Positions 36,739-64,000 are shown, counted from the first letter of the stretch. The stretch: DNA of 64,000 nucleotides from a virus (IMGVR_UViG_3300031963_000009); one strand, 5' to 3'. A program made the numbers and translations. The notes: generated by a model from the letters alone, not told the origin.

Positions 36739-37051
36739 GTATTATTTCGGTCACTGCTTCCAGACTGGTTGGAGGGAGATGTGGAACAACTTCAAGATGT
36801 GGAGAGACCTCATTAGTGGAAATTATAAAGACTATGCCCTACTTTCAACTGATGACCCTTATGAAGAATGTTATCAATGGTTCTGGTGTAGTATCAATAT
36901 GGATGAAACTTATCCCAAAGAGTTTTTAGAATACTTGATGGAAATGTGTGATCGTATTGATCGTGGAGAAGAGAAATTGATTCCGTTGACTGAAGATTTT
37001 ATGGATGATTTGAAAAAAATGTTAGAAGAATCTAATGAAGAGGACACTTGA
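36713..37051 (+). CDS. hypothetical protein
   Basis: coupled ORF array. Confidence 0.65.
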   Translation: MKTKLNWIEYYFGHCFQTGWREMWNNFKMWRDLISGNYKDYALLSTDDPYEECYQWFWCSINMDETYPKEFLEYLMEMCDRIDRGEEKLIPLTEDFMDDLKKMLEESNEEDT

Positions 37052-37098
37052 GGAACTGTCCATCGACCCTTGACTTTTACAACCAGAATCTTTATAGT
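37042..37098 (+). promoter_or_regulatory. palindrome-type promoter cassette
   Basis: GGACACTT-GAGG-AACTGTCC; TTGACT(37070)-17 bp-TATAGT(37093). Confidence 0.8.
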
Positions 37099-37120
37099 AT
37101 GAATATACAAATCTAGATCA

Positions 37121-37678
37121 ATGACTTACAAAGCAACACTGAAAGTTCACTTTGATACTGAATGGACTCCTAGTTATGGTGGGTCTGGAATCTATGATGA
37201 TGAAACTCTTCCAGAGGAACATTATACCTTTGAGATTCCTTGTCATGACATCAATACCATTCAACTGTTCCGTTTCTTTGGAAATATTGCCCGAACAATG
37301 GGGCACTGTGAACAAGGTATTATGAAAGGAGCTTGTTCACTTGCATTTAATGATATGCGTGGTGAAGAAGAAATGCGTAAGGTTGCTGAAGAGTTTGATA
37401 TGAAACTTGCAGAAGATTATGCAAAAGAGTTTCGTAAGTTGGAAGATGAAATTTATGATCTGAAAGCTAAACTTTCTCGTCTCGAACAACCTGAGAATTC
37501 TCAATATACTGATGAAGAAATGGCAGCCATTACTCATCAGGAATGGAAAGGTCTTGTTCCTGGTAGCAATTCTGCTGTGATGAAGGGATGTAAGTGTCCT
37601 GTAATGGATAACGAAGAGATGCCTGAAGATCGTAAATGGGTAAATGGCGACTGCCCTCTACATGGTAAACAAAAATGA
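37121..37678 (+). CDS. hypothetical protein
   Basis: first ORF after the promoter; coiled-coil and Cys-rich C-terminus. Confidence 0.7.
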   Translation: MTYKATLKVHFDTEWTPSYGGSGIYDDETLPEEHYTFEIPCHDINTIQLFRFFGNIARTMGHCEQGIMKGACSLAFNDMRGEEEMRKVAEEFDMKLAEDYAKEFRKLEDEIYDLKAKLSRLEQPENSQYTDEEMAAITHQEWKGLVPGSNSAVMKGCKCPVMDNEEMPEDRKWVNGDCPLHGKQK

Positions 37679-37860
37679 AACCTAACTTTCGTAAAGTCCT
37701 TAGTATGGCCCTTGAAGAAGGTGTCAGGTATGGATACAATCGTGCCCACAAACATGTAGAGAATCCACACGAAGATGCAGTGGTTGATCTAGTGGTTGAG
37801 GGTGCAATGAACTCTATCTACGAATGGTTTGAATTTGAGGAGAATCATGTCTCTGATTGA
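37675..37860 (+). CDS. hypothetical protein
   Basis: ATGA-coupled. Confidence 0.65.
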   Translation: MKPNFRKVLSMALEEGVRYGYNRAHKHVENPHEDAVVDLVVEGAMNSIYEWFEFEENHVSD

Positions 37861-38194
37861 CACAATTAATCATTTCATTCAAGACCAAGAAGGACATCTT
37901 CAGTGTCTTGAATGGGATATTCGTGAAGAAACTAATCAAGAAGAACCACAACTTGATTGGTATTGTGAAGAGTATGACCTGTGTAAAGAACGCATAGAAC
38001 ATCTACAACAAATCAAATCTGAACTTGCTCGTCTTCAACGCTATGATGATGAACTTTCATCTGTAATGCCTGAGGACTACAAAGATTGGTGGCAGAACTC
38101 TAAGGAAGAGTGGCCTGAGGTTGCTAAAGGTTCTATTGAGAATCTACGTGAACGTGAAGAACTTGCTTGGAAACAACTGGAGGCACAACAATGA
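37847..38194 (+). CDS. hypothetical protein (start revised to MSLID)
   Basis: paralogous to 42702-42896. Confidence 0.65.
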   Translation: MSLIDTINHFIQDQEGHLQCLEWDIREETNQEEPQLDWYCEEYDLCKERIEHLQQIKSELARLQRYDDELSSVMPEDYKDWWQNSKEEWPEVAKGSIENLREREELAWKQLEAQQ

Positions 38195-38541
38195 GCGGCG
38201 GACACTTTAATGATTGTGGTTACGATTACTACAAGGTAGCACAGTTTGCTGATGAGTTGGAAGTAGAAATCCAAAACAACAACAAAAAACTGGATGAATA
38301 TGAGTATGCTCCCAATTTTTCACCAGAAACTATCAAGTATTTGAGGAAGCAACTTCGTCAGATGCGTAAGGTAGCAGAGATCATGAGGCATATTGATTAT
38401 CTGTATTCTGGTGATCATGGTGAAGATAGTTTTATGCATCGTGTAAAAGAAGTAGAGAAACACTGGGAGGAGATTGAAGAGATAGTTACACGCATGGATA
38501 ATCATCCAGATGGATGGAATGAAACTGGAGACGGTGTGTGA
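38191..38541 (+). CDS. hypothetical protein (start revised to MSGGHF)
   Basis: ATGA-coupled. Confidence 0.65.
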   Translation: MSGGHFNDCGYDYYKVAQFADELEVEIQNNNKKLDEYEYAPNFSPETIKYLRKQLRQMRKVAEIMRHIDYLYSGDHGEDSFMHRVKEVEKHWEEIEEIVTRMDNHPDGWNETGDGV

Positions 38542-38656
38542 AACTTCCATATGTGCTAAAATCGTGGTATTATCACATCACAGGATACTGGGAGAAGAAA
38601 CTACCACATCTGCCTGGTGCTAATTCTAAACAATTTTGGAACATTATTAACGGTAA

Positions 38657-38848
38657 TTGATTATGGTTGAGAAAGTAAAGTTTGTAACGGTCACTCGTGT
38701 GATTGATGACCGCAAAGGTATTCATTACCTGGATGCTATTGATGAGAATGGTATCCACTGGACTGCTGAATTGGATAACAAACAAGAGAAATGGTTAGTA
38801 TATACTAAACTATGGACTAGAGATCCTCAACATCCTTACGATTTATGA
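38657..38848 (+). CDS. hypothetical protein
   Basis: coupled ORF array. Confidence 0.6.
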   Translation: MIMVEKVKFVTVTRVIDDRKGIHYLDAIDENGIHWTAELDNKQEKWLVYTKLWTRDPQHPYDL

Positions 38849-39063
38849 AAAACTATCGTATCAAAAAAGTAACAGACGGACACTCAACCAGATATTATCC
38901 ACAACACAAAAGATATGGATTGTTTTGGTATAATCTATTTGTAGATGAATATAGGGATGGTGATTATTCTACATTTGAAGAAGCACAGTGGCACCTTTGC
39001 AACTATTTGAGAGAACCTGTGATAGAATATTTGTCCTTTGATTGTGATTGTGGAGAAAACTAA
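38845..39063 (+). CDS. hypothetical protein
   Basis: ATGA-coupled. Confidence 0.6.
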   Translation: MKNYRIKKVTDGHSTRYYPQHKRYGLFWYNLFVDEYRDGDYSTFEEAQWHLCNYLREPVIEYLSFDCDCGEN

Positions 39064-39163
39064 TGACTGAATGTGTGTCTGACCCAAAAACTTGGATTGA
39101 TGTGGCTCAACTAGCAGTTTTTATGGTTCCTGTCTCCATTTTTCTTTGGAGAGTATCACAATA

Positions 39164-39382
39164 ATGACCGACCTAAAACTCTGTAAGGATTGTAAGCACT
39201 ACAAGAAAGATTGGTTTGAGCATCTTACTGGTGGTGGAGACCGATTTGATATGTGCCTCAATCCAGTAGTGAGTGGCAATCTGGTGACTGGAAAAGTCAA
39301 AGGTGGTCGTTTTTGTGATATGATGAGATTGCCTTATGGTAGATGTGGTAATGAAGGTAAGTATTGGGAGGCACGGAAATAA
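39164..39382 (+). CDS. small Cys-rich protein (start revised to MTDLKLC)
   Basis: CKDCKHY..C..C..CG.EGKYWE. Confidence 0.6.
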   Translation: MTDLKLCKDCKHYKKDWFEHLTGGGDRFDMCLNPVVSGNLVTGKVKGGRFCDMMRLPYGRCGNEGKYWEARK

Positions 39383-39585
39383 TGAAAGTTTATGATTACC
39401 GAATTGTAGAAGACCTCAATTTAAAAACTTTGAAACCTTATTTTTTCATTCAGTATTATCATCTTGCTGAAAAAAAATATATTCTTCACTCAGATGCTAC
39501 ATTCCAAACACTTCAAGAAGCACAAGAAGCAATACGACTACTGAGAAAATACAACGAACCTGTGTATCATTATGTTGAGGATTGA
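39382..39585 (+). CDS. hypothetical protein
   Basis: TAATG-coupled. Confidence 0.55.
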   Translation: MKVYDYRIVEDLNLKTLKPYFFIQYYHLAEKKYILHSDATFQTLQEAQEAIRLLRKYNEPVYHYVED

Positions 39586-39586
39586 A

Positions 39587-40096: not shown

Positions 40097-40680
40097 CTGA
40101 AAGACTAAATCATAATCTTAATGTAGATACAATCAAAACAATTAAAGATGTGAAGAATATCTTTGATACTATGGAATTGGTTGCTTCTATGGATAAAGAT
40201 AATCCAAAATATGAAGTCGCAAAGGAATACTTTACAATTCCTTATGTTCCACCTGAACTTAAATTACCAACACCACGCAAGAGTATTGAAGAAATCCAAC
40301 AAGAACTGGATGAGAAGATTGATGCTCTCATAAAGGCAACAAAAGAAAAGTTTGATTGTTCCCAATATTTTGCTGGAAAAAGATATAACGAAAAGTTTGA
40401 TAGGATTATTCAGGACTTTGAGTATGCGAAGGAACACGGAAGCTTTCCACAAAAACTTACTCTTGGTTACTCCAAGTTTGATTACTCCAATTTTGTTGTG
40501 ACTGGTAGTTCTGTGGAATCCTCTTTTGTAATCAAACAGGGGAAAACCCACGAAGGTTATTATACGAATGGAAACCGTAGATATTTGAAGTATTATATGC
40601 CTGATAAACCGAATATGATTGTTCGTTTCTTTATGAAAACTTGTTTGGGCTTTGTGTGGGTTGATGAGAAGGACACTTGA
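40093..40680 (+). CDS. hypothetical protein
   Basis: 195 aa, ATGA-coupled. Confidence 0.65.
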   Translation: MTERLNHNLNVDTIKTIKDVKNIFDTMELVASMDKDNPKYEVAKEYFTIPYVPPELKLPTPRKSIEEIQQELDEKIDALIKATKEKFDCSQYFAGKRYNEKFDRIIQDFEYAKEHGSFPQKLTLGYSKFDYSNFVVTGSSVESSFVIKQGKTHEGYYTNGNRRYLKYYMPDKPNMIVRFFMKTCLGFVWVDEKDT

Positions 40681-40727
40681 AGAACTGGCACAGGGAGACC
40701 CCACAAGGTCTCCTATTGGTCTATAAT
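40671..40727 (+). promoter_or_regulatory. palindrome-type promoter cassette with stem-loop
   Basis: GGACACTT-GAAG-AACTGGCA; GGAGACC/GGTCTCC stem; TATAAT at 40722. Confidence 0.8.
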
Positions 40728-40749
40728 ACTCTCATAAGCAACCAAACCG

Positions 40750-41079
40750 ATGATTGACCTCTCTCAACTGAATGTAGAACAACTCAAAGAACTTGAACTT
40801 CAAATTCAGAAACATAAGGAACAACAGAAGACAAAGGATGCTCTGGAAAATCTACAAGGTTATAAAGTAACTTTTTATATTAGGTTTGACCCTGAAAAGC
40901 ATAAGGATCACGATATGCTTACAAATAAAGGGAAACTTGACCCGAACATTTTTGCTGATTATCTGTGTGATAATCTTGTTACAGACCTGATTAGGGATTT
41001 TGAATTGTATGGTTATGAGGATGTGAGTTATCCTAATGTGGAAGTAGCAACAAAACAAGAAATTGAAGAGAAGTTTTGA
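40750..41079 (+). CDS. hypothetical protein
   Basis: single-gene module between two cassettes. Confidence 0.7.
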   Translation: MIDLSQLNVEQLKELELQIQKHKEQQKTKDALENLQGYKVTFYIRFDPEKHKDHDMLTNKGKLDPNIFADYLCDNLVTDLIRDFELYGYEDVSYPNVEVATKQEIEEKF

Positions 41080-41136
41080 GGACACTTGAAGAACTGGCAC
41101 AGGGACACTCCAAAGCCCCCTGTGATGCCTTATAAT
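41080..41136 (+). promoter_or_regulatory. palindrome-type promoter cassette
   Basis: GGACACTTGAAGAACTGGCACAGGG identical to the 40671 copy; TATAAT at 41131; AGGA SD. Confidence 0.8.
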
Positions 41137-41160
41137 ACTCTCATACACAAAGGAACTCCA

Positions 41161-42896: not shown

Positions 42897-43129
42897 CTGA
42901 CAAAAAAGAAGTAGCACAAACACTAAAAGATGCTGTAAAAACACTTTATCAGGATGAGAAGTGTGCCGAAATGGGTTGGGAAACAGATAAACCTACTGTT
43001 ATTATTGTTCTCCGTGAGTTAGTAGCAGAACTCCAATACTATCAGTTTTGTAGAGAGGAAGGTGTGGAAGATATGGTGCTTGATGCCCGTGCTATACTTG
43101 ATGTATGTGATGAATTGGAGAACCTGTGA
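42893..43129 (+). CDS. hypothetical protein
   Basis: ATGA-coupled. Confidence 0.6.
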   Translation: MTDKKEVAQTLKDAVKTLYQDEKCAEMGWETDKPTVIIVLRELVAELQYYQFCREEGVEDMVLDARAILDVCDELENL

Positions 43130-43304
43130 TGAGACATCAACACAACCTCAAACAAACTAAAATGTTGATTGATGCTGTTGAGCATTACATTTACACTATC
43201 AAAGATGCTGCTCCTCAATATGCTGTGAAAGAATACCAAGAGTTGCTGAAAGAACTTGAAGAAGAGGAAGCTCTACTTGAAAGAACTATTAAGAGGGATT
43301 TGTA

Positions 43305-44027
43305 ATGACTAACCTTAAATTCACATCACCAAGTGGAGAAACTACCATAAAAGTTGAAGATACTGGTAGATTGGGAACAGTAGCACCTAAAACACAACTA
43401 CACATTCGCAAAATGGATGAACCAGTGAAATATGAAACTCCTATGACTGAAATTGAAGAACTGAAAGCACAAATCAAAGTGCTTGAAAAGAAGCTCTCAT
43501 TCCTTGAAGAACTGGAAAAAACAAAATCACCAGTAGAAGAAGCATACAAAGATTGGTGGGGACAATATCCTAAATTAGAAACTGATTCCAAGTATGATGT
43601 TATAAGGTGGCAAGGTTTCCAAGCAGGATATAATGCTGCTTATGAAGAAAAGGTAAGTGAAACCGCACAAGAACGAGGAGAACGAGTTCATAATGAAATG
43701 GAAGAAACTATCAAAATCCACGATGGTTATGGTGTAGTTGATTACAAACCAACTCCACAAACACCAGAACAAGTTGCTGATGGATTGAAAGAAGCATTTA
43801 GAGAAGCAGTCAAACAAGGTGTAGTTTCATCTACTAAATCAAAAACACTCACAGACCTGATTTACGATTGGTGGGAAGATGTATTCACAACTCATAGTGA
43901 TTGGGATATGGAAACTTCCATTGATAATTTGGTAGATGAAATTAGTTTGTGGTTGCCTACAGAACACGATACTAACAGTTATAAGTGGAATGAGTGTATC
44001 CGAATGATTAGAGAGAAACTACGATGA
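43305..44027 (+). CDS. hypothetical protein (mosaic, coiled-coil)
   Basis: 240 aa, coupled. Confidence 0.65.
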   Translation: MTNLKFTSPSGETTIKVEDTGRLGTVAPKTQLHIRKMDEPVKYETPMTEIEELKAQIKVLEKKLSFLEELEKTKSPVEEAYKDWWGQYPKLETDSKYDVIRWQGFQAGYNAAYEEKVSETAQERGERVHNEMEETIKIHDGYGVVDYKPTPQTPEQVADGLKEAFREAVKQGVVSSTKSKTLTDLIYDWWEDVFTTHSDWDMETSIDNLVDEISLWLPTEHDTNSYKWNECIRMIREKLR

Positions 44028-44206
44028 CTGAAAGAAACTTCAAACAAGAGCTCGTTCACTCCTGTTACTATGATATGGAGAATGGATACGACAGCGAAAC
44101 AATTGATTATGATTGTCTGATTGGTATTATCACTGAATTGTGTGATAGAATAGAGCAGTTGGAAAAGGACAACGAGCTCCTGAAATCTTATGCTTGGGAA
44201 CAATGA
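44024..44206 (+). CDS. hypothetical protein
   Basis: ATGA-coupled. Confidence 0.6.
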   Translation: MTERNFKQELVHSCYYDMENGYDSETIDYDCLIGIITELCDRIEQLEKDNELLKSYAWEQ

Positions 44207-44988
44207 CTGAATACAATCTACCAGAAAAAGATGATGCTCCCTGGTTAAACACTACTTATGATGGATTTATGACCCACGAAGAAATGCTTGAAGTTGCCGC
44301 ACAACGAGAAGCAGCAAATGAAGTGATTGTTGCTAAGGTATCTGAGGAAGACTATCAGAAAGTTCAGAAAGAAGTGGCAAACAAAAAAGCATGGGAAGCA
44401 GTAAAAAAACTGTATGATGAGAATGGTGATGCTCTCCAACAACTTGCTGATATCGAAAAGGAGGAACGAATGGATGCTGTGAGAACTGCTATTGCTGGTA
44501 TTGATAAGTATTCTGATGCTCTCAAAGAACTTAATGAAACTGAAAAAGTAGAACTGCGAGCAGAGTTAGAAGCAAAGAAGAAAGAAAACTTTCAACTGGT
44601 TGCTGATGCTTGTATGAAAGAATATGAGCAGAAGTATCATCGTGATGTATTCCCTGTGGATGAACACTGGGTTTATATGGTTTCTGAATACTTTGGCACA
44701 GGTGAAGGTCAAACCGTGTGTATTATGATGACACAGGCAAATCCTGGTCATCCTGAAGATTTTGAAACATCTACCAATAAGTATGTTGCTTGCACCACTA
44801 AACAGTATCGTGCTGTGAGAGCATTCCATGAGCAGTTTGGCACTTGGCATCTTCATGGTCTCAGATTTCTCAGTAAAGAAGATTTCTTCAGCGAATATTC
44901 ATACTACATTCCTCCAGCGATGATGAAACTCCTCAATAGAAGTTGCTTCAAAGACTTCTACACTCGTGTTCACTACAACTTCTCATGA
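44203..44988 (+). CDS. hypothetical protein
   Basis: about 260 aa; coiled-coil N-half. Confidence 0.65.
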   Translation: MTEYNLPEKDDAPWLNTTYDGFMTHEEMLEVAAQREAANEVIVAKVSEEDYQKVQKEVANKKAWEAVKKLYDENGDALQQLADIEKEERMDAVRTAIAGIDKYSDALKELNETEKVELRAELEAKKKENFQLVADACMKEYEQKYHRDVFPVDEHWVYMVSEYFGTGEGQTVCIMMTQANPGHPEDFETSTNKYVACTTKQYRAVRAFHEQFGTWHLHGLRFLSKEDFFSEYSYYIPPAMMKLLNRSCFKDFYTRVHYNFS

Positions 44989-45170
44989 CTAAACTTTCTC
45001 CAAAAGCAAAGGCAATTATGGATGTTTTTGATAATGAATATTATCATAAAGCAAAATTACGACAAGTTGCTATTGCTTCTACTCTTCGTGAGTTGATTAA
45101 AGAACTCAAGTATATTGGTATTACTGAAAAGAACATTCTTGAAATTGTTGATGAACTGGAGGCATTATGA
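44985..45170 (+). CDS. hypothetical protein (MTKLS family; start revised)
   Basis: ATGA-coupled; ends EIVDELEAL. Confidence 0.65.
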   Translation: MTKLSPKAKAIMDVFDNEYYHKAKLRQVAIASTLRELIKELKYIGITEKNILEIVDELEAL

Positions 45171-45370
45171 CTGATAAAGAGCTCTACAACCCTGATGAGT
45201 TTCTACTGGATAACATCAAAGGGTATCACTATGAGGTGATGGATGAAGGACATCATGTGTGGATGGCTTTCTATTTTGAGAATGGTAACACAGGGCACTT
45301 GAATGTCTTTCTGAATGATGGTAAGATTAACACACGTTATGAAGAGTGGGTGAATGACTTACAAACTTGA
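45167..45370 (+). CDS. hypothetical protein
   Basis: ATGA-coupled. Confidence 0.6.
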   Translation: MTDKELYNPDEFLLDNIKGYHYEVMDEGHHVWMAFYFENGNTGHLNVFLNDGKINTRYEEWVNDLQT

Positions 45371-45659
45371 TGAAAACGCCAAAGCATTCTCTTATACCAA
45401 AGAAGAATTGTTTGATTGCATTACCCGTATTGTTGCACACCCACACACTGCCATTACACATCACGATAAAACTCGTGCTATGGCAATATTTCTTACGTTT
45501 GCCGATTATCTTGGAAACTATACTGAAAGCGACAACAACTTCGGTCATGTTATCTACGAATCAGATTCTACCGATTTTGAGGGACATGTTCTACAGTTGT
45601 TGGGTAAGAATAAGCCGATGGATTTTTATCAACCTGATGTTGATGAGTTACTGAAATGA
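45354..45659 (+). CDS. hypothetical protein
   Basis: coupled ORF array. Confidence 0.6.
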   Translation: MTYKLDENAKAFSYTKEELFDCITRIVAHPHTAITHHDKTRAMAIFLTFADYLGNYTESDNNFGHVIYESDSTDFEGHVLQLLGKNKPMDFYQPDVDELLK

Positions 45660-45862
45660 AAGAGTGGTTTGAAGATGCTTGGTGGTCTTGGACTAATTGT
45701 ATTAACTTTCGACTCGTCAAGTATGGTGACGAGATAGATCGTTTTGCCTTCTTTGAAGAATTAAACAACGGTTGGTATCACATGTATATCTACCCTTATG
45801 ATGACTGGTATCATCCGACTATCTCACAAGAACGAAAAAAGTTTTTAGGCCAAACACCATGA
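45656..45862 (+). CDS. hypothetical protein
   Basis: ATGA-coupled. Confidence 0.6.
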   Translation: MKEWFEDAWWSWTNCINFRLVKYGDEIDRFAFFEELNNGWYHMYIYPYDDWYHPTISQERKKFLGQTP

Positions 45863-46050
45863 CTACTAGAGCGTTACAAATCCTGGAATGTACGATGGAA
45901 CTTTCTATGCGTCCTAAAAGTGGCGATAGACAAAAGTTGATTGCTCGTGTAATTCGTGAGGTTGCTGATAGATTATGTACCGATTGGGGAGAACTTGAAG
46001 ACCCTATTGAGATTTTGCGTGAAATTGCTGATGAGGTGGAGGCACTCTAA
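45859..46050 (+). CDS. hypothetical protein
   Basis: ends EIADEVEAL. Confidence 0.6.
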   Translation: MTTRALQILECTMELSMRPKSGDRQKLIARVIREVADRLCTDWGELEDPIEILREIADEVEAL

Positions 46051-46457
46051 TGTTTGAAACTGAAACAACTTGGTGGTTTGAAAAACAAGACCGCAAAACT
46101 TGGTTACATCGTGCTCAATCAAAACTTGAAGAAGTTGTAGAACGACATGATGATGATATTGAACAAATTGAGAAAAGACTTCGTTATTTGGAGGATAATT
46201 TATCGTGACTGAAGAACAAAAAACACTTCTTGAAATGGTTGCAGAGGAACTCGGTGGAAAACTTTACACGGTTCTAGTGGCTGATAAGTACAAAGAACAC
46301 AAAGAAATTGTAATTAGATATGATGAACAAAAACGATAAGAACCTAGAAGTTAGACTTTATTATTCTTACAAATAAAAAGTTAGATGTTGCAAAAGTTTT
46401 CAAAATGTTACAAGACAAGTCAGCTTCAGATCCAAAATATGTTACAATGTTTAAGGA

Positions 46458-46661
46458 ATGGAGATATTAAGAATGAATGTAACTGAATACAATGTAACTG
46501 ACTGGCAACTAACTCAAGATGAGTTTGCTGATGTGATTCATCTTGTAAAGAATGAAATGCAAAAACATTCTGATGATAAGTTCAAAGAACTTTATTATGG
46601 TTTGATTGCAGGAAAACTATTAATTATGAAGAATGAAACGCAACCGTTCTCAAATAACTGA
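46458..46661 (+). CDS. hypothetical protein
   Basis: ORF array; start uncertain. Confidence 0.5.
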   Translation: MEILRMNVTEYNVTDWQLTQDEFADVIHLVKNEMQKHSDDKFKELYYGLIAGKLLIMKNETQPFSNN

Positions 46662-46800
46662 ATTTTATAAAGTTGGTTATATTCTAGACGAAGAACAAAA
46701 ATGGGCTTGTTATTTTGACTTTAATTGTGCTCAAGAAGCTATGATGAAGATGATTCGACTCGGTATAAATGTGACTGGAATGGAAACACAAATGATGGTG

Positions 46801-46870
46801 TGACAGTCTGTTGGCTGTCCACTAACCACGCCGAAGGGGCTCAGATCTTGGTATCTTAGCCATGTTGAGA
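46801..46870 (+). promoter_or_regulatory. palindrome-type promoter cassette with shared leader
   Basis: TGACAGTC-TGTT-GGCTGTCC; CGCCGA; TATCTTAGCCATGTTGAGA. Confidence 0.85.
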
Positions 46871-46924
46871 CACGGATGTGGTCTTGACGCAACACAAACC
46901 CCTTTCAAGTAACTTCAAGACAAC

Positions 46925-47308
46925 ATGGCGACTCGTTCTCGCATTGGTGTTCAACTCAAGAATGGCTCTGTCCTTTCTGTGTATTGTCACTGGGATGGCT
47001 ATCCGGAGTGGAATGGTAAGAAACTGAAAGAATACTTCAACACTCGGCAGAAAGCTGCGGAATTGGTTGATGGTGGAGACATCAGTGCTCTGTGGACTGA
47101 TAAAGATTGGGATGGTAAAGAACAAGAGTTCGGTACTCTTTACTACGAAGGTCGTGGTGATGTAGACACTGAACCCAATTTGAGTGAATCTTTCCAAGAC
47201 TTTATCAAGTCCGTGAATGATTCTTGGGCGGATTATGCTTACCTCTTTGCCGATGGTGAGTGGAAGTGTTATACTCCTAAAGGTAATGAAGAAAAAATCC
47301 CTGCCTGA
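46925..47308 (+). CDS. conserved phage hypothetical protein
   Basis: MATRSRIG..SVYCHWDGYP..NG. Confidence 0.75.
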   Translation: MATRSRIGVQLKNGSVLSVYCHWDGYPEWNGKKLKEYFNTRQKAAELVDGGDISALWTDKDWDGKEQEFGTLYYEGRGDVDTEPNLSESFQDFIKSVNDSWADYAYLFADGEWKCYTPKGNEEKIPA

Positions 47309-47592
47309 TATGGAAAACCTCATTCAAGTGAAGTATTACTTCAAGGAACATCCCAACACTACTCTCTCGGTGTTCCTTAAGACTAAAGAACAAGTTGAGG
47401 CTTTCAAGGCTAAACATCCCGACTATGTTTATGTGGAGGCTAAATGATTTACGTTGTTGAACTTTATGTTGGCGGCACTGTCTTCAAAGAAGAAGTGATT
47501 GCTACTAATCCTAAAGATGCCCGCGAAACTGCTCTTGCTCGTAATCCCAAAGCAAAAGTTGTTGGTGTTAACGTTAAATTCTGAAAATTATT

Positions 47593-48000
47593 ATGACTAA
47601 ACAAAACGGATTTATTGACCCTGCTGTTGCTGCTATTGCTGTCGGTGTGGTTGTGATTGGTGGTCTCATCTTCATTGGTGGCCCACAATATAATGTGTGG
47701 CAACAATCTCTTGCTGGTAAGGCGGAACTGCAGAAAGCAGAATACACACGTCAGGTTGCTGTTCTTGAAGCACAAGCAAAGAAAGATAGTGCTCAACAAC
47801 TTGCTGATGCTGAAATCATTCGTGCTACTGGTGTTGCTAAAGCAAACCAAATCATCGGTGATAGTCTGAAAGATAACCGTGAGTATCTTCAGTACCTGTA
47901 TATCACTGGTATTGAAGATGGTGCCAAGAATGGTAACGTGACCATCTATGTTCCCACCGAAGGTGGTATGCCAGTTCCTACTCTTCAAATGAATAAGTGA
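47593..48000 (+). CDS. membrane protein with SPFH/prohibitin-like coiled-coil
   Basis: N-terminal TM helix; EAQAKK..EIIRATGVAKANQII..EYLQYLYI. Confidence 0.65.
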   Translation: MTKQNGFIDPAVAAIAVGVVVIGGLIFIGGPQYNVWQQSLAGKAELQKAEYTRQVAVLEAQAKKDSAQQLADAEIIRATGVAKANQIIGDSLKDNREYLQYLYITGIEDGAKNGNVTIYVPTEGGMPVPTLQMNK

Positions 48001-48386
48001 TGAAACATCTGTTGATTCTTGTGTCTCTGTTGGTAACTTCTCCTGCATTTGCACAAACAAAAGAAGTCACTAAACAGAAAGTATATCGTCCTTTTACATA
48101 CGAAACTGCATGTGCATTGGAAACTCCTCAAGAGTTTCAAGTAGATACATGTAAAGTTGTGGAAACTAGGGAGTCTACTGGTGCTCTTCGCACTCGTAAT
48201 ATCTTCTCTAATCGTTTCCGTCTTACCATCAAATCTCGTTTTGATAAAGAAAAGGGATTTGTAACTTGGGATTCTCACAATAAGTTTGAGTACAAGTTTG
48301 AATATAAAGTTGGTGGTGTAGATGGCCTTGGTGCCTGGTCTTATGTAATGCCAGGATTCTTACTTGAGAATGTCTCATGGGACTGA
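47997..48386 (+). CDS. hypothetical protein with signal peptide
   Basis: MKHLLILVSLLVTSPAFA. Confidence 0.65.
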   Translation: MMKHLLILVSLLVTSPAFAQTKEVTKQKVYRPFTYETACALETPQEFQVDTCKVVETRESTGALRTRNIFSNRFRLTIKSRFDKEKGFVTWDSHNKFEYKFEYKVGGVDGLGAWSYVMPGFLLENVSWD

Positions 48387-48439
48387 TAAGGATCTTTGAT
48401 CAATCAGCCCTTGACTTTCTTCCGTTTTTTTCTTATTGT
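48386..48439 (+). promoter_or_regulatory. promoter with second-type palindrome
   Basis: ATAAG-GATCT-TTGAT; TTGACT(48411)-17 bp-TATTGT(48434). Confidence 0.7.
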
Positions 48440-48462
48440 ACTTTTGTTCAACTGATTCACAC

Positions 48463-48609
48463 ATGAACGACGATTTCAATTTTGATTCCTTTGATGAAGG
48501 TGATCTCTATGAATCCTTGATGGAATCTAATCCAGAAGATTGGCTTCCTGATGCTGGTATCCGAGAAGAGTTTGATTCTGAAACTCTTGCCCTTCTACGG
48601 AACTTTTAG
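48463..48609 (+). CDS. small acidic protein (not in ORF track)
   Basis: 48 aa, 15 D/E versus 2 R; first ORF after the promoter. Confidence 0.6.
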   Translation: MNDDFNFDSFDEGDLYESLMESNPEDWLPDAGIREEFDSETLALLRNF

Positions 48610-48634
48610 TATAATAAAATGGGTAAGTAGGTGA

Positions 48635-49147
48635 GTGTTAATGAAGGTTGTTGAAAGACACCGATACGAAAACGGAGAAATCTTTGAGACTAGATCTCTG
48701 AGGTTTCTCCCTTTTTATTACTCGGAAGAGATTGCTGAATCTCTGATGAAGATCATTCGTAATCAACTTACACCTGACTTGCTGACTAAAAAGTATCGCA
48801 AGGAGAATGAAACAAACCCAATGTACGGGCATTGTTATCATTCAACTCAAGCCCTATTTTATCTCATGGAACCTCACGATTTGATTCCAATGAGTGGAAT
48901 AGATTACAGAGGTGATACACACTGGTGGTTGTATGATGACCGAGGAGTTATCTATGACACAACCGCAGATCAGTATTACTCTGTGGGACAAGTTCCCCCA
49001 CATGCTGTTGGAAAGAAAACAGCTTGGTATGGTTGGAAACAACGACCACACCAAAGATCTCTCACTTTAATCATGAGAGTTCTTGATGCTTGTAACATTG
49101 AGTATTGTTACGAAACCATCAAACCTCAGACGGGGGGCTTGACATAG
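48635..49147 (+). CDS. hypothetical protein, possible Cys-His (papain/transglutaminase-like) fold
   Basis: GHCYH..HWWL.D..YDTTADQY. Confidence 0.5.
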   Translation: MLMKVVERHRYENGEIFETRSLRFLPFYYSEEIAESLMKIIRNQLTPDLLTKKYRKENETNPMYGHCYHSTQALFYLMEPHDLIPMSGIDYRGDTHWWLYDDRGVIYDTTADQYYSVGQVPPHAVGKKTAWYGWKQRPHQRSLTLIMRVLDACNIEYCYETIKPQTGGLT

Positions 49148-49167
49148 TTCTTTGTCTGATCTATACT
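49139..49167 (+). promoter_or_regulatory. sigma70-type promoter
   Basis: TTGACA-17 bp-TATACT. Confidence 0.75.
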
Positions 49168-49233
49168 CAAAACATCAAAGACACGGACACAATCCCAACT
49201 CTTAATTGAGACGGTCAAAACTCCAAGTCCTAG

Positions 49234-50637: not shown

Positions 50638-50652
50638 GAACTTATCTAATCC

Positions 50653-50719
50653 ATAAGGATCTCTGATCAATGGCCCTCTTGCCCCGCAACGGGTAAGAGG
50701 GTATTCTAGCTATGTTGAA
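50653..50719 (+). promoter_or_regulatory. promoter with second-type palindrome and shared leader
   Basis: ATAAG-GATCT-CTGAT; TTGCCC; TATTCTAGCTATGTTGAA. Confidence 0.7.
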
Positions 50720-50729
50720 ACGCAATTCA

Positions 50730-50870
50730 ATGAATCTCCGACCACACCAAGAACGTGCAGTTGAGGTAATGCAACTGCATAAAAAGGGTCAAATCATTGT
50801 TCCCACTGGTGGTGGTAAAACAATGAAGATGATCAAAGACGCAATGATTCAATTCCAGGAACAGAAATGA
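50730..50870 (+). CDS. N-terminal fragment of SF2 helicase (Q motif and Walker A); not in ORF track
   Basis: MNLRPHQ..IIVPTGGGKT..; 46 aa; TGA overlaps the next ATG. Confidence 0.8.
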   Translation: MNLRPHQERAVEVMQLHKKGQIIVPTGGGKTMKMIKDAMIQFQEQK

Positions 50871-53507: not shown

Positions 53508-53897
53508 ATGATGTACCCCAACACAAGTATTCTTGATCCCGACAATGGCCCTACTGGATTTACCACTCCAGACTTCCAATTTGCTGCTATTCCATTTGGA
53601 AAAGAATACATGATCATTGCAGATGGCCAACAACTTGAAGTAGTCAAAACAAGACAACTTGCAGAGATTCGGCTTGAACAATTAAAAAACTCGCATCGGA
53701 CTCTGAAGAAGGGTACTAAGACCCCTGCACCACCAAAATCACAAAAAAAGGCGAAAACGTCTAGTGGCCGCAAGGGGTCTCAGGGACCAAAGCCAAAGGC
53801 CACCAAGGGTTCTACCAAGTCTCCTAAATCTAAGAGTGTGACAGTCAAGAAACCGTACACTCTTCATCCAAATCCATTGATGGATGCACTACTCTAG
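53508..53897 (+). CDS. hypothetical protein with Lys-rich tail
   Basis: PNTSILDP..GPTGF; basic C-terminus. Confidence 0.65.
   Translation: MMYPNTSILDPDNGPTGFTTPDFQFAAIPFGKEYMIIADGQQLEVVKTRQLAEIRLEQLKNSHRTLKKGTKTPAPPKSQKKAKTSSGRKGSQGPKPKATKGSTKSPKSKSVTVKKPYTLHPNPLMDALL
53839..53895 (+). promoter_or_regulatory. palindrome-type promoter cassette inside the 3' end of an ORF
   Basis: TGACAGTC-AAGA-AACCGTAC; TACTCT at 53890 followed by AGCTAT. Confidence 0.6.
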
Positions 53898-53912
53898 CTA
53901 TAGTTCAGAAAA

Positions 53913-54164
53913 ATGTCTATCGAAGAAAAACTCTTATCTTTGGGATTTGCATACAATGCAAAGGGGAATGTTCTATCAAAACGTGTCTTACGAAAAAGTC
54001 AAATCCCCATAGGTTGTTTCTTCAAATCCTTAGAAACTGGTGTTGAGTTTTACTCTCAAAATCCAGAAGATGATACTAAGTGGGATCATCTTATTATGAC
54101 AAGAGATTTTGAAGAAGTTCTACTTGACGAAACTGTTACTGCACAATCAATTCTTGAATTATGA
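53913..54164 (+). CDS. hypothetical protein
   Basis: first ORF after the cassette. Confidence 0.6.
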   Translation: MSIEEKLLSLGFAYNAKGNVLSKRVLRKSQIPIGCFFKSLETGVEFYSQNPEDDTKWDHLIMTRDFEEVLLDETVTAQSILEL

Positions 54165-55608: not shown

Positions 55609-55637
55609 TTGACAAATACGGACAAAACCCTTACACT
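55609..55637 (+). promoter_or_regulatory. sigma70-type promoter
   Basis: TTGACA-17 bp-TACACT. Confidence 0.7.
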
Positions 55638-56079: not shown

Positions 56080-56268
56080 TTGTTGTTAGTTTTTGAGTTT
56101 CTATGTTAGATCCTAGATTCCAAGATCCGGAAAGACAAAAAAGATTAAGACAACAAAAAAGTGATGCTCTTAAGGTCATTATGAGTGAGATGTTGGATAA
56201 TCCATCCTCAAAGGAAAATCAACAATTAAAAGATGTAATAGAGTTTCTGGATAAAGTAGAATAGTATG

Positions 56269-56326
56269 TGACGCTTTGAGAACTGTCACAGGGGCTCTTT
56301 ACAGAGCCCCTTTTTGCATGTATTGT
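56269..56326 (+). promoter_or_regulatory. palindrome-type promoter cassette with stem-loop
   Basis: TGACGCTT-TGAG-AACTGTCA; GGGGCTCT/AGAGCCCC stem plus T-run; TATTGT at 56321. Confidence 0.7.
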
Positions 56327-56332
56327 GGCTAC

Positions 56333-57277
56333 ATGAAGAACACTCACCTCGAACATCCCGAAGATTCTGTACTTCTCGGTAAGAAGGCTGTGCAGGATAC
56401 TATCAACTATCTGCGTAACTGCAAAGGTGATTGTAGTGTGAAGTATGATGGTGCTCCTGCCATTGTGTTTGGGACGCATCCTGTCACTAATCAATTCTTT
56501 GTAGGGACGAAAAGTGTATTCAATAAGAAGAAAGTTAAGGTTAATTATACTCACGCTGACATCGAAAAGAATCACGGTAATAATTCCAAAGTTGCAGGAA
56601 TACTTCACACTTGCCTTGAAGTATTGCCTAAGTTGGAGGGTGTTTACCAAGGTGATTTTATTGGGTTTGGTGGTACTAACCGATTCACCCCTAATACTAT
56701 CACTTATACCTTCAATACCGATAGCGATTCTTTTCGTAATTGTTCTGTGGTCTTTGCTGCTCATACACGGTATTCTGGAGATACGTCATGCGTTGAAGGT
56801 TCGGAGAACCCGCTCAACAAACTGAGTGCATCTTTTGATGTTCCTGAGTATCTCAAACACAACTTTATGTCAACTTACTTTGTGAATGGTGATGCACAAT
56901 TTACCTCCCGTCGTCGTAGGATTGATTACCTTCTTGGCCTTGCAAGTTTGGTTAGCAATTTTGTTAGATACCCTGAAGAAAAAGAAGTAGCAAATCTCAA
57001 AGTTGCGATCAATAAGTGCATCCGAGAGAATGTTCCTGTTGATTGTATTGACGGCAATCTTCTCCTGTTGTTCAACCTGTTGACCAAAGCCAAGGATTTG
57101 ATTGTAGAAGGAATCACCGTCACTGGTGATCAAGTTGATGCAGTGATTGATCTCGGTGTGGATTATGTTGCGTCTGGCCATGAAGGTTATGTTCACTCTA
57201 ATGATTATGGGACTTTCAAGTTAGTCAACCGTCGTATGTTCTCTTACTTTAACTTCACCAAACCAAAAGGTTGGTAG
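56333..57277 (+). CDS. ligase-like nucleotidyltransferase-fold protein (start revised to MKNTHLEHPED)
   Basis: KYDG (motif I), YQGDF, HEGYV, FKLVNR. Confidence 0.6.
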   Translation: MKNTHLEHPEDSVLLGKKAVQDTINYLRNCKGDCSVKYDGAPAIVFGTHPVTNQFFVGTKSVFNKKKVKVNYTHADIEKNHGNNSKVAGILHTCLEVLPKLEGVYQGDFIGFGGTNRFTPNTITYTFNTDSDSFRNCSVVFAAHTRYSGDTSCVEGSENPLNKLSASFDVPEYLKHNFMSTYFVNGDAQFTSRRRRIDYLLGLASLVSNFVRYPEEKEVANLKVAINKCIRENVPVDCIDGNLLLLFNLLTKAKDLIVEGITVTGDQVDAVIDLGVDYVASGHEGYVHSNDYGTFKLVNRRMFSYFNFTKPKGW

Positions 57278-57347
57278 GGACAGTTGCCTGGCTGTCCACC
57301 AGAGGCGCCAGGATCGTTCCTGGCATCGTATCTTAGCTATGTTGAGA
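57278..57347 (+). promoter_or_regulatory. palindrome-type promoter cassette with shared leader
   Basis: GGACAGTT-GCCT-GGCTGTCC; GCCAGGA/TCCTGGC stem; TATCTTAGCTATGTTGAGA. Confidence 0.85.
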
Positions 57348-57356
57348 GGTTCACCC

Positions 57357-57530
57357 ATGACTCGTCTTGAAATCCAACAGGCACTGTATGAGACTCGCAA
57401 CAACTATCTCAAAGCAAAAGCTTCGGTAGAGTTCTATCGTAAGGAGATCATGTTCCTCAAGGAATGTGAAGCAAACCTGGACAAACCTGAAGGTTGGTTG
57501 TATCAAGAAATGTTCGGAGCTGAAGTATGA
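57357..57530 (+). CDS. hypothetical protein
   Basis: GAGAGG SD; MTRLEIQQALY. Confidence 0.65.
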   Translation: MTRLEIQQALYETRNNYLKAKASVEFYRKEIMFLKECEANLDKPEGWLYQEMFGAEV

Positions 57531-58862: not shown

Positions 58863-58869
58863 CCTAGTG

Positions 58870-58938
58870 TGACGGTTGGCGGACTGGACACCAAACCCGC
58901 CAACCGCAGCCAGATCCTGTATCTTGGCCATGTTGAGA
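58870..58938 (+). promoter_or_regulatory. palindrome-type promoter cassette with shared leader
   Basis: TGACGGTT-GGCG-GACTGGAC; CGCCAA; TATCTTGGCCATGTTGAGA. Confidence 0.85.
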
Positions 58939-58948
58939 GATGAATCAA

Positions 58949-59110
58949 ATGCGAATCGACATCCGTTGTCCTGCTGCTCCCTGGGAGAATCACACCACTG
59001 ATCTAGACAGAGCATACGACATCGCATACAATTTGAGTGAAGAATACCAGTGTGATGTTGACCTCTACTACAACACCACTGGCACACTTTACACCACTGT
59101 TTCTGCCTGA
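58949..59110 (+). CDS. hypothetical protein (not in ORF track)
   Basis: MRIDIRCPAAPWENHTT.., 53 aa. Confidence 0.6.
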   Translation: MRIDIRCPAAPWENHTTDLDRAYDIAYNLSEEYQCDVDLYYNTTGTLYTTVSA

Positions 59111-59881: not shown

Positions 59882-60064
59882 TTACAACAATTCATTTTTG
59901 ATGAATCTGATTGCAGGGGATGACCTAATCCCCTACTGGGGTAAAATTGCAGAAAAATCATTGTTTGCTCAAACTCAGATCCCTTGCCACGACAGGGATC
60001 TCAAAGAGAGATCGGTGCGACGCTTTGAGGGTTGGACAGATCAGAGGCAAACCGAGCCAGAGTG

Positions 60065-60134
60065 TGACAATCCCCAAACCGCACACCAATTCAACCAAAG
60101 GTGGCCATGAGGATGTATCTTAGCTATGTTGAGA
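60065..60134 (+). promoter_or_regulatory. palindrome-type promoter cassette with shared leader
   Basis: TGACAATC-CCCA-AACCGCAC; TATCTTAGCTATGTTGAGA. Confidence 0.8.
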
Positions 60135-60150
60135 CAAACACACAAACCTC

Positions 60151-60372
60151 ATGACTTTCGTTGACGCACTGATTGCATCGGGTTATGTATTCGATGATGA
60201 GAATTATGATGGTTGTTATGTAAAACAAGATTCCGAAGGTTTCATTCATCTTTACCAGGAAAATGTGGATGATGATACTGACACTCTCTGGAATTATGTC
60301 AAGATGACTGATGATTTTGATGTGATTCATGAAGTAACTTTTGATCCTAATGTTGACACCATTGTTGAGTGA
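60151..60372 (+). CDS. small acidic hypothetical protein
   Basis: first ORF after the cassette. Confidence 0.65.
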   Translation: MTFVDALIASGYVFDDENYDGCYVKQDSEGFIHLYQENVDDDTDTLWNYVKMTDDFDVIHEVTFDPNVDTIVE

Positions 60373-60765: not shown

Positions 60766-60775
60766 TGTAGCAATG

Positions 60776-60845
60776 TGACAGTCTGCGGGCTGTCCACTGA
60801 TCGTGCCGAAGGGGGCTGTGGCCCTGTATCTTAGCCATGTTGAGA
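60776..60845 (+). promoter_or_regulatory. palindrome-type promoter cassette with shared leader
   Basis: TGACAGTC-TGCG-GGCTGTCC; TGCCGA; TATCTTAGCCATGTTGAGA. Confidence 0.85.
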
Positions 60846-60855
60846 GGAATCACTG

Positions 60856-61095
60856 ATGACTGACCGCAAGTTTCACAACATGAGCGTCGAAGATCGTGAG
60901 ATGTTTGCTTACAATGCAGCTTACGAGCGTCGTCAACAACAACTCGCTGCAGTTGCTCCTGAGCTGCGTATCAAATACTGCTTCGAGTTTCTGAAAGGTT
61001 ATGTTGCTGATGGTGATGATCTGATGTCAGCTCGTTGTTACGATGGCATCGCAAAGTACAGCGACAAACTTGACTGGTCTGAGGCACACTACTGA
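60856..61095 (+). CDS. hypothetical protein
   Basis: GAGAGGA SD. Confidence 0.7.
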   Translation: MTDRKFHNMSVEDREMFAYNAAYERRQQQLAAVAPELRIKYCFEFLKGYVADGDDLMSARCYDGIAKYSDKLDWSEAHY

Positions 61096-61696: not shown

Positions 61697-61701
61697 GTAT
61701 G

Positions 61702-61771
61702 TGCCAGTTGGCGGGCTGTCCACCAAATCCGCCAAAGGGGCTCAGGGCCCTGTATCTTAGCCATGTTGAGA
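61702..61771 (+). promoter_or_regulatory. palindrome-type promoter cassette with shared leader
   Basis: TGCCAGTT-GGCG-GGCTGTCC; CGCCAA; TATCTTAGCCATGTTGAGA. Confidence 0.85.
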
Positions 61772-61783
61772 CAAACAAACGCA

Positions 61784-62062: not shown

Positions 62063-62216
62063 TGAACAAACAAATGGAAATGATCGACATTCTGCAAGAA
62101 GAATGCCGCAAAGATTCTGAACTCCTCGATATGATCATTGAGGAATATGTGATGGGGCTAAATGCTTTTGAAGAAGCAAATCTTGAAGATTTTATTGTCA
62201 ACAACTTCGGAGATCT

Positions 62217-62492: not shown

Positions 62493-62685
62493 GCACACTG
62501 GTTACACTTTCAACCGAGTTAAGTTCACCAAAGATGAGGAAACTTGTCTCTTACGTTTGCTGTTCCAAGCACGAGATTGTGGGAACTGTAATGTTGATGA
62601 AGAATGGCTGCCTTTGTGTAATGATCTGATCACAAAGTATTACAACAGCCAGATCAAAGAAGCTCAACCTATCCAAACTCTCTGA
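62485..62685 (+). CDS. hypothetical protein
   Basis: coupled. Confidence 0.6.
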   Translation: MTEHTGYTFNRVKFTKDEETCLLRLLFQARDCGNCNVDEEWLPLCNDLITKYYNSQIKEAQPIQTL

Positions 62686-62847
62686 AATTATCATGGTCGT
62701 TCACTTCTATGAAGGTCAGTCTTACTCTTGGGAGTATTCCAACCGCAGCTATGATGATAGCGGATGCTGGGAGGATTATCTGACTGCCGATGAGTATGAA
62801 GATGCTCTAGATCGTAAGCGGTTTGAGCAATCAAATCGAGACTGGTA

Positions 62848-62916
62848 GGCCAATTCACTGGCTGCACACTAAAGCTGCCGAGTGCAGCCAGAACCTGTAT
62901 CTTGGCCATGTTGAGA
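62848..62916 (+). promoter_or_regulatory. palindrome-type promoter cassette with shared leader
   Basis: GGCCAATT-CACT-GGCTGCAC; TGCCGA; TATCTTGGCCATGTTGAGA. Confidence 0.8.
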
Positions 62917-62930
62917 GGAATCGCTCCCCA

Positions 62931-63074
62931 ATGTTTGACGAACTCTGGTCCGAGATTGCTGATGCTCCTGGTGAGATCTTCGACCGTCCGATGACAGCAG
63001 AAGAACGAGCTGAGTTTCAGAGAGTCTGTGAAATGTCTGAAGAAGAGTATTACTATTACATGGAAGCTGCCTGA
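62931..63074 (+). CDS. small acidic hypothetical protein (start revised to MFDELWSE)
   Basis: GAGAGGA SD. Confidence 0.65.
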   Translation: MFDELWSEIADAPGEIFDRPMTAEERAEFQRVCEMSEEEYYYYMEAA

Positions 63075-63076
63075 AA

Positions 63077-63255
63077 TGATGAACGATCTCCGTCAACGTT
63101 GTATGGATCTCGCCGATGAAATGTCGGCCGAGATCAATGGCAACCTGTTCTATGTTCCCGACGAAGACATAGAGAACTGCCTCAAAGCTCTGACTGAGGA
63201 TAACATCCAAGATGTCGCAGCTGAACTTGCAAACCTAGCTCACTGGTTTAACTGA
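63077..63255 (+). CDS. hypothetical protein
   Basis: MMNDLRQRC..; start revised. Confidence 0.6.
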
Positions 63256-63257
63256 TC

Positions 63258-63455
63258 ATGAATCTGAACACTCTTGAATTGCTCATTGCTGACTGCTTTG
63301 AGTACATCAATGACAACGATCCCAAAGCTGGTGCGTATTGGAGCAACCAACTCTTCACCAAGCAAGGTGACATCAAACGTCATATGATTACTGAGATGAC
63401 GCTTCAGCGGCTAGAGAACATCGCTGCTGAACTCTGCGACTATCAGGAAGTCTGA
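63258..63455 (+). CDS. hypothetical protein
   Basis: ORF array. Confidence 0.6.
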   Translation: MNLNTLELLIADCFEYINDNDPKAGAYWSNQLFTKQGDIKRHMITEMTLQRLENIAAELCDYQEV

Positions 63456-63483
63456 TTAACACAAACACAACACACACAAAACA

Positions 63484-63810
63484 ATGGAACTGACCAAAGC
63501 TTTCCCTCCCGCTGACGATCTGATCATGAAACTGCAAGAGATTGATTACAGCAAACACTTCCACAAATACATGGACATTGTTGAAACTATTGTGGTGTGG
63601 ATTGCCGCAATCGCTACTATCATCTTCGAGAAGCTGCAGACGATGCGATTCAAAACTCCCGACACGATTGCTGACTACTTCTACTTCAACATCAACATGA
63701 TTGCTGCTCCTGGTGATGAGATTGTGGGTCTGAGTGTAGGCAATCGTTACATCGGTTTCTATGGCGACTCTCTGAACTGGGGTGTGCTCGACGAGAACGG
63801 CTGCCTTTGA
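63484..63810 (+). CDS. hypothetical protein with one TM helix
   Basis: IVVWIAAIATIIF. Confidence 0.65.
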   Translation: MELTKAFPPADDLIMKLQEIDYSKHFHKYMDIVETIVVWIAAIATIIFEKLQTMRFKTPDTIADYFYFNINMIAAPGDEIVGLSVGNRYIGFYGDSLNWGVLDENGCL

Positions 63811-63839
63811 TTTGAGCGAACAATTAAATTGATTTAATT

Positions 63840-63890
63840 CTGGCTGCATGGAGTGATCCAACCTACCATGCAGCCAGTTTTAACGCTTTT
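63840..63890 (+). terminator. strong hairpin / probable terminator
   Basis: 12-bp stem CTGGCTGCATGG/CCATGCAGCCAG followed by TTTT. Confidence 0.6.
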
Positions 63891-63986
63891 TCCGGTTTCT
63901 GCCGTAGTGGTGGCCATGAGTCTCACCGCTTGCGACTTGAGACTGGCTGGGGGCTGGGTCAGATCCTACCAAACCTGGCCGGTGTG

Positions 63987-64000
63987 TGACAATCGGGTGG
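63987..64000 (+). promoter_or_regulatory. probable start of another palindrome cassette, cut by the window end
   Basis: GTGTGACAATC, as at 60062-60072. Confidence 0.45.

Follow-up and report, generated by a model that had tools for sequence, protein, structure and literature searches.

The viral sequence IMGVR_UViG_3300031963_000009 is a linear contig of 111 kb, estimated to be about 52% complete, from which a stretch of 64,000 nucleotides (bases 8205-72204 of the contig, hereafter the window) was analyzed. The content and order of its genes are those of a T4-like cyanomyovirus, with gp32, baseplate and tail genes, a giant fibre, 2OG-Fe(II) oxygenases, a UvsW-type helicase and long runs of small open reading frames (ORFs), and its closest cultured relatives, the Synechococcus phages S-CREM1 and DSL-LC02, match it in a patchy manner at 70-80% identity. 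About 16 units of small genes are headed by the same promoter cassette, in which a two-armed sequence box lies at a fixed distance upstream of a -10 hexamer. These cassettes occupy the gaps that separate co-oriented small ORFs, and they often touch or include the stop codon of the gene upstream.

An earlier note on this DNA had listed the copies and the spacing between box and -10, and both hold up: every listed position carries a copy, and recounting to the TAnnnT hexamers returned exactly the ten distances of 51 bp, two of 50 bp and one of 52 bp that had been given. Measured from the start of the box, the distance is 51 bp for the copies at 19000, 37042, 40671, 41080, 46801, 53839, 57278, 60065, 60776 and 61702, 50 bp for those at 58870 and 62848, and 52 bp for that at 56269; the copy at 63987 also lies 51 bp from a TAnnnT hexamer, which falls beyond the end of the window. 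The copy at 19000 is, as had been recognized, a half-site, retaining the right arm only. Four more copies, at window-equivalent positions 64924, 65529, 65936 and 68324, were recovered past the window end by nhmmer and pattern searches. All of the listed copies are intergenic and on the + strand, and across the 111-kb contig the strict consensus GMCARTYNNNNRRCYGNMCA is matched 11 times on the + strand and not once on the - strand, for a chance expectation that we estimate at about 0.03.

The box itself is 22-24 bp long, extends from about -66 to -42, roughly 28-30 bp upstream of the -10, and is composed of two arms (GTGMCAGTY-N4-RRCTG(K/NM)CAC). Its symmetry is imperfect, the right arm usually having one extra base. 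The palindrome of the earlier note is a two-armed box and not a hairpin, its arms varying independently across 82 related cassettes. The idea that the sequence between box and -10 varies freely was wrong: the CAC directly 3' of the box is conserved (88-99% for this right flank in the 82-row alignment introduced below, far above the mirror positions on the left), as is CC(R)AW at the position of the -35. The cassettes fall into three sub-classes, distinguished by the -10 and the 10-13 bp after it, with class A having TATCTT and AGCCATGTTGAGA, class B having TATATT or TATTGT and GGCCACATGA, and class C having TATAAT and ACTCTCAT. All of the -10 variants (TATCTT, TATTCT, TATATT, TATAAT, TATTGT and TATAGT) keep TAnnnT, and the conserved region after it, in which transcription would start, often supplies a GAGG ribosome site (Shine-Dalgarno), often together with an ATG.

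In most copies the -35 is weak or absent, a trait of activator-dependent promoters. Class A has a CCGCCA-like sequence at this position, which goes undetected in a scan for the sigma-70 consensus, and a canonical -35 at 17 bp occurs within the window only at 37042 (TTGACT-17-TATAGT) and 56269 (TTTACA-17-TATTGT), and also in Syn9 at gp55 and gp61. Some cassettes carry a -35 inside a hairpin loop: at 56269, the TTTACA lies in the loop of a full intrinsic terminator hairpin (56290-56311), the overlap of terminator and promoter spanning 56290-56326, and S-CREM1 has the same layout, with TTGACA, before the homologous DUF6267 gene. The region also contains box-less canonical promoters of the form TTGACA/TTGACT-17-TAnnnT, at 48411-48439, 49139-49167 (TTGACA-17-TATACT) and 55609-55637, one of which precedes the gene for a 467-amino-acid HNH nuclease. 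Because these stand beside the cassettes, two promoter classes coexist here, and the box-less promoters may represent a second, possibly middle, class.

An inverted repeat that abuts the stop codon of the upstream gene invites comparison with the PeSL elements of other T4-like phages, whose general layout is similar (PMC4122927), and the box could accordingly be viewed as a stem-loop that ends or processes the upstream transcript, making each cassette a composite of terminator and promoter; in some copies there are indeed real hairpins between box and -10, that at 56290-56311 being a complete terminator. An alignment of 82 cassettes makes this view very improbable. The 19-bp core of class A, i.e., its invariant -10/start region, was found in 64 stretches of uncultured viral contigs in IMG/VR, which contributed 75 of the aligned cassettes (77 distinct copies were found, and 75 used). 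Pairing across the arms amounts to 68.1%, as opposed to a mean of 69.7% after shuffling, with 497 of 500 shuffles reaching or exceeding the observed value, and mutual information per pair is at most 0.19 bits. Inner pairs are complementary only through conservation of both sides, complementarity among the outer pairs is just 32-62%, and where compensation would be expected the arms show C-A mismatches. Since the arms do not covary, the box is conserved as sequence.

The other evidence against a stem-loop is of several kinds. RNAalifold predicts no hairpin for the box, and the sole hairpin that it does predict, inside the invariant -10/start region, is broken by natural -10 variants (TATTCT, TATATT), so that this invariant block is the -10 and start region rather than a structure. 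No U-tract follows the box, an Rfam scan of the window returned two tRNAs only and no match for the cassette, and in Syn9 only the left arm varies, the right one being constant. An RNA motif, terminator or hairpin was ruled out on the strength of the Rfam, RNAalifold and covariation results, and an apparent pairing of the box loop with the -35 region (TTGGCGG/CCGCCAA, CTGGCTG/CAGCCAG), which had also been considered, failed across the 82 copies, with no complementary pair high in mutual information. These observations support a box that is recognized by its sequence, at a set distance from the -10, and not as a structure.

The cassette extends well beyond this contig. In Syn9 there are nine box units, all on one strand (43114-51213) and heading small ORFs ahead of gp55 to gp79, at the same distance from the -10, and these have their own conserved start region and a -35 that is of the TTGACA type, of the TTGACT type or absent. 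The box is also present in S-CAM9, S-CREM1, P-SSM2, P-SSM4 and S-RSM4, and so spans several genera of Prochlorococcus and Synechococcus myoviruses. Although these phages differ greatly in base composition, the CAC is in every case 28-30 nt upstream of the -10; searching five phage genomes with one mismatch allowed yielded 17 matches, as compared to 1 in the control. The family is probably a class of cyanomyovirus early promoters that has already been reported: Doron et al., in 2016, reportedly found a new element upstream of the early genes of Syn9, and the box is probably that element. A review of 2010 described cyanomyovirus early promoters only as sigma-70-like, with an unclear mechanism, in phages that lack alt, modA and modB as well as motA and asiA (PMC2984593).

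The two arms have a counterpart in the host. Rfam Cyano-1 (Yfr2) matches in 65 genomes furnished 43 upstream regions, the host set comprising 131.7 kb. A matrix built only from phage boxes has seven matches of at least 9 bits in this DNA, every one at -58 to -64 from the start of the Yfr2 RNA, a placement whose probability by chance we calculate to be below 1e-15. Reciprocally, when a matrix built only from host promoters is applied to the phage contig, the left and right arms of the cassettes make up the top 18 hits and 26 of the top 32. Each arm of the phage box matches the half-site of Yfr2 promoters, GTGMCAGTT, and in 30 of the 43 host promoters G(G/T)GMCAGTT is followed by TAnnnT 50-51 nt downstream, which is the phage register: the distance from the promoter-proximal half-site to the -10 is 50-51 nt in hosts and 49-51 nt in the phage. 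The arms likewise match, in the same register, the half-site of CGRE1, the regulatory element of the Yfr2 promoters.

About one-third of the host Yfr2 promoters add an upstream half-site, which produces the palindrome AACTGKCAC-N-GTGMCAGTT. This has six matches in five host genomes, all beside Yfr2, and none in the controls, and it fits the published CGRE1, which is palindromic, 21-22 bp long and flanked by GTTG or GTTA. CGRE1 is bound by PlmA (PMM1637), a dimeric-type regulator of the GntR family, in pull-down and electrophoretic mobility shift assays (EMSA; PMC6191309), and PlmA raises the output of the yfr2 promoter via CGRE1 in an E. coli reporter (PMC6191309; Lambrecht et al. 2018). Phages are not mentioned in that paper, which places the start of CGRE1 55-57 nt upstream of the transcription start; this agrees with the geometry here only if the promoter-proximal edge is meant (PMC6191309). 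At three loci of Synechococcus genomes (L166, L169 and L170 in G001-G003), some Yfr2 paralogues have a full CGRE1 about 8 bp before the -10 as well as a phage-like box further upstream, for a total of three or four half-sites.

The earlier note had proposed that the box binds a dimeric transcription factor, encoded by phage or host, that acts on RNA polymerase from a fixed helical position. The part of this proposal that stands is a sequence-read site at a fixed distance, mostly without a -35, that has the half-site and register of a host promoter. A GntR-type reader encoded by the phage is unlikely, because no GntR gene was found in five complete cyanomyoviruses or in this contig, which represents about half of its genome. 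Each complete host genome has a single GntR gene, of 334-343 codons.

The reading that we favor, with a probability of about 0.5, is that the cassettes are early promoters of T4-like cyanomyoviruses in which half-sites of the host have been copied and for which PlmA is the reader. On the sequence evidence, the box would be a rearranged copy of a host small RNA promoter element, and its binding by PlmA is a good hypothesis. According to this model, PlmA, the host's single GntR-type regulator, which binds the palindromic CGRE1 and activates yfr2, would dock on the phage box and, once docked, would recruit the host RNA polymerase to -35-less promoters of the phage. The phage, which has no alt, motA or asiA, would thereby gain a set of strong early promoters that may be coupled to the nitrogen and light status of the host, and the identical 40-bp promoter cores would provide crossover points for the gain and loss of single gene units. 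In its most ambitious form, in which early infection starts by a hijack of PlmA and the early promoters are copies of Yfr2 promoters, rearranged face-to-face and tuned via PII-PipX-PlmA, the model is one that we offer tentatively.

Several observations weigh against PlmA as the reader of an early promoter. That the promoters act early is an assumption based on the gene order in common with Syn9 and on what Doron et al. reportedly found in 2016. The strict phage consensus is missing from five host genomes (GTGMCA-N10/11-TGTCCAC had no matches, and 20 as compared to 42 in controls when one mismatch was allowed), and because of this what phage and host have in common is the half-site together with its register rather than the complete box. 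Taken as evidence that the box is absent from hosts, however, this strict-pattern result was misleading, since the right arms of the host differ, and the matrix searches later showed the link. Phage half-sites are arranged face-to-face across 4 bp, about 13-14 bp from centre to centre, whereas those of CGRE1 are back-to-back and 10 bp apart, and a rigid PlmA dimer would be unable to bind both layouts alike; no back-to-back site of the CGRE1 type occurs in the phage contig or in Syn9. Binding by PlmA is established only for the yfr2 and yfr4 promoters of MED4, and the yfr5 promoter, which has one intact half only, was unshifted in the published EMSA (PMC6191309). The host promoters nearest to the phage box are of 'type II', which lack the upstream half, and the commonest right arm of the phage, TGTCCAC, has one base more than the half-site.

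The misfit of the face-to-face arms with CGRE1 and the missing strict consensus would also be expected if the same promoters had a different reader, which might be a phage protein that is delivered with the virion or made early, host RNA polymerase, acting through its alpha C-terminal domains on a non-AT, UP-like element, or a host factor that acts at the Yfr2 promoters as well. In T4 early promoters, UP elements lie in the zone that the box occupies here, and conservation is far stronger at the right-flank CAC than at the mirror positions on the left, both of which fit such a reader. We nevertheless regard it as doubtful: both arms score as half-sites of Yfr2 promoters, and the left arm lies in exactly the register of the host, such that any alternative reader must also read host promoters. 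Moreover, the phages examined encode no GntR-type protein, and no candidate DNA-binding protein of the phage was identified, in that the annotated 'transcriptional regulator' of Syn9, gp230, has no Pfam match and a DUF1825 protein offers no clue to DNA binding.

GntR-family proteins are frequently repressors, and the box might instead be a site of shut-off or modulation, through which PlmA or an early phage protein represses or times the promoters. Early promoters need to be silenced later in infection, and these phages lack asiA (PMC2984593). We consider this improbable, in that the box is centred near -54 and does not overlap the core promoter, most copies have no -35 and hence would be weak unaided, and PlmA increased rather than decreased the output of the yfr2 promoter in the reporter (PMC6191309). 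Sigma-54, ECF, CRP/NtcA, LexA, LysR and marbox geometries were compared by eye, and none fits the spacing.

A large share of the picocyanobacteria in the ocean are killed by T4-like cyanophages, and how these switch on their early genes without Alt, ModA/B, MotA and AsiA, by which T4 redirects the host polymerase, is unsettled (PMC2984593). The half-site and register common with Yfr2 promoters name PlmA, the only GntR regulator in the hosts, as a testable candidate for the reader of these promoters. If PlmA does fill this role, the onset of infection would be linked to nitrogen and light signalling in the host, early phage transcription would require the PII-PipX-PlmA nitrogen/energy signalling axis and be adjusted by it, and PlmA activity could be a host determinant of infection success.

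Individual cassettes, all of which are on the + strand, retain different portions of this architecture. The half cassette at 18998-19056 has the right arm only (AAACTGGCAC), which scores 16.9 bits with the host-derived matrix, and a TATGAT 51 bp from 19000. A class C-like cassette at 37040-37120 has the box GGACACTTGAGGAACTGTCC, the canonical TTGACT-17-TATAGT and an ATG at 37121; a class C cassette at 40669-40749 has a right arm (AACTGGCAC) that is a perfect half-site, a GC hairpin in the -35 region, the -10 TATAAT and an ATG at 40750; and the class C cassette at 41078-41160 is near-identical to the latter. Among the class A cassettes, that at 46799-46880 has the box TGACAGTCTGTTGGCTGTCC and the -10 TATCTT followed by AGCCATGTTGAGA, and the TGA of its box is the stop codon of ORF 46633-46803. 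Others of this class head small ORFs, namely those at 57276-57350 (ORF 57339-57530), 58868-58941 (with 50-bp spacing; ORF 58940-59110), 60063-60137 (ORF 60151-60372) and 60774-60849 (ORF 60856-61095), and a window-specific ORF of 68 amino acids ends right at the start of the last of these. The class A cassette at 61700-61775 has a left arm (GTGCCAGTTG) identical to the CGRE1 half-site of the host, and that at 62846-62932 is a hybrid, considered below. Class B includes the cassette at 56267-56335, in which the box is followed by the intrinsic terminator hairpin with the -35 TTTACA in its loop, a 17-bp spacer and TATTGT, and which heads the DUF6267 gene, and the cassette that starts at 63985-64000, which is cut by the window end and whose -10 in the contig is TATATT, at 51 bp. 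The cassette at 53837-53912, heading ORF 53913-54164, is degenerate, with a good left arm, a weak right arm and TACTCT at 51 bp. Finally, a box-less relative at 50650-50725 (hit at 50702) has a strong 8-bp GC stem-loop in place of the box, directly before a class A -10/start block (TATTCTAGCTATGTTGAAA), and the helicase gene lies downstream.

This UvsW-type helicase gene (50712-51976) is represented by an ORF of 369 amino acids that begins at position 49 of the ResIII profile, and an ORF of 52 amino acids upstream overlaps the beginning of this ORF. A split or a frameshift in the gene is possible. Preceding it is the ORF of 467 amino acids (49234-50637), which ends in an HNH domain (Pfam HNH_4/HNH) and whose N-terminal 400 residues have no match. 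Immediately ahead of the small-ORF region, at 34048-35679, there is an asparagine-synthase-like phage protein (Asn_synthase, with a weak match to GATase_7). The window has two real tRNAs, Leu(TAA) at 21250 and Thr(TGT) at 21866; a 93-nt tRNA-Gln(CTG) called by ARAGORN at 47056-47148 lies inside ORF 46925-47308 and is unreported by Rfam, and is probably a false call.

The cassettes had also been proposed to act as recombination joints similar to PeSLs, and one such joint can be documented, although the likeness to a stem-loop and terminator fails. Upstream of a common 40-bp promoter core (about 62885-62924), the 62848 cassette matches one cassette of a syntenic viral contig, L048; downstream of the core it matches another, and the 452-bp unit of cassette and ORF between the two is absent. 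Because the crossover of this indel falls inside the promoter core, it has the signature of a PeSL-type event (PMC4122927). Comparison with L048 reveals about 16 gene-sized indels in total, and about 4 of the approximately 16 breaks touch a cassette. Because most of the other breaks are at plain gene boundaries, the recombination role of the cassettes is real but secondary, and it explains part of the gene-by-gene shuffling in the accessory region. If the repeats were mainly recombination sites, whether integron-like or PeSL-like, and their promoter activity secondary, so clean an indel and the breaks at cassettes would be readily explained. Such a primary role has little probability, however, in view of the many breaks at plain gene boundaries and of the fact that the same element serves small RNA promoters in the host, and the conservation of the box and its exact distance from the -10 across distant genera fits transcription instead. 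Site-specific recombination was also rejected, there being no Phage_integrase or Resolvase domain in the sequenced half of the genome.

The cassettes can be compared with several known systems. Integron-like attC cassettes combine a recombinase with sites that are conserved as structure, whereas the sites described here are conserved as sequence and the contig, about 52% complete, has no Phage_integrase or Resolvase domain. The PeSLs of RB49/phi1, PST/T4 and nt-1/KVP40 (PMC2839356, PMC4122927) are closer, in that they too are dense, co-oriented intergenic cassettes in a hyperplastic region of small ORFs, supply a promoter, a Shine-Dalgarno sequence and an ATG, and bound gene-unit indels with the crossover inside the cassette. 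They differ in having near-consensus sigma-70 boxes and a stem-loop that is conserved as structure: the cassettes have neither covariation nor a U-tract, the separate terminator at 56269 is the only one among them, and, with respect to the sigma-70 boxes and 17-bp spacer of PeSLs, TAnnnT is found in all copies and a canonical -35 only at 37042 and 56269. Like the early promoters of T4, the cassettes have conservation far upstream of the -35 and would be used by unmodified host polymerase at time zero; in T4, however, the conserved elements are A/T tracts, which the alpha subunit reads and whose effect Alt boosts, and the box described here is a dyad of mixed GC content. With CGRE1 the cassettes have in common the half-site GTGMCAGTT(G), the distance of 50-51 bp from the proximal half-site to the -10 and promoters that lack a -35, and they differ in the orientation of the half-sites, which in CGRE1 are back-to-back around a GTG/CAC centre and in the phage box face each other across a 4-bp gap, often with an extra base in the right arm. 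The cassettes also match the early element of the Syn9 type, which is common to T4-like cyanophages and is conserved, as are the cassettes, upstream of clusters of small early ORFs, and to which this contig adds a further sub-class, with CCGCCA at the -35 and a 19-bp invariant -10/start region.

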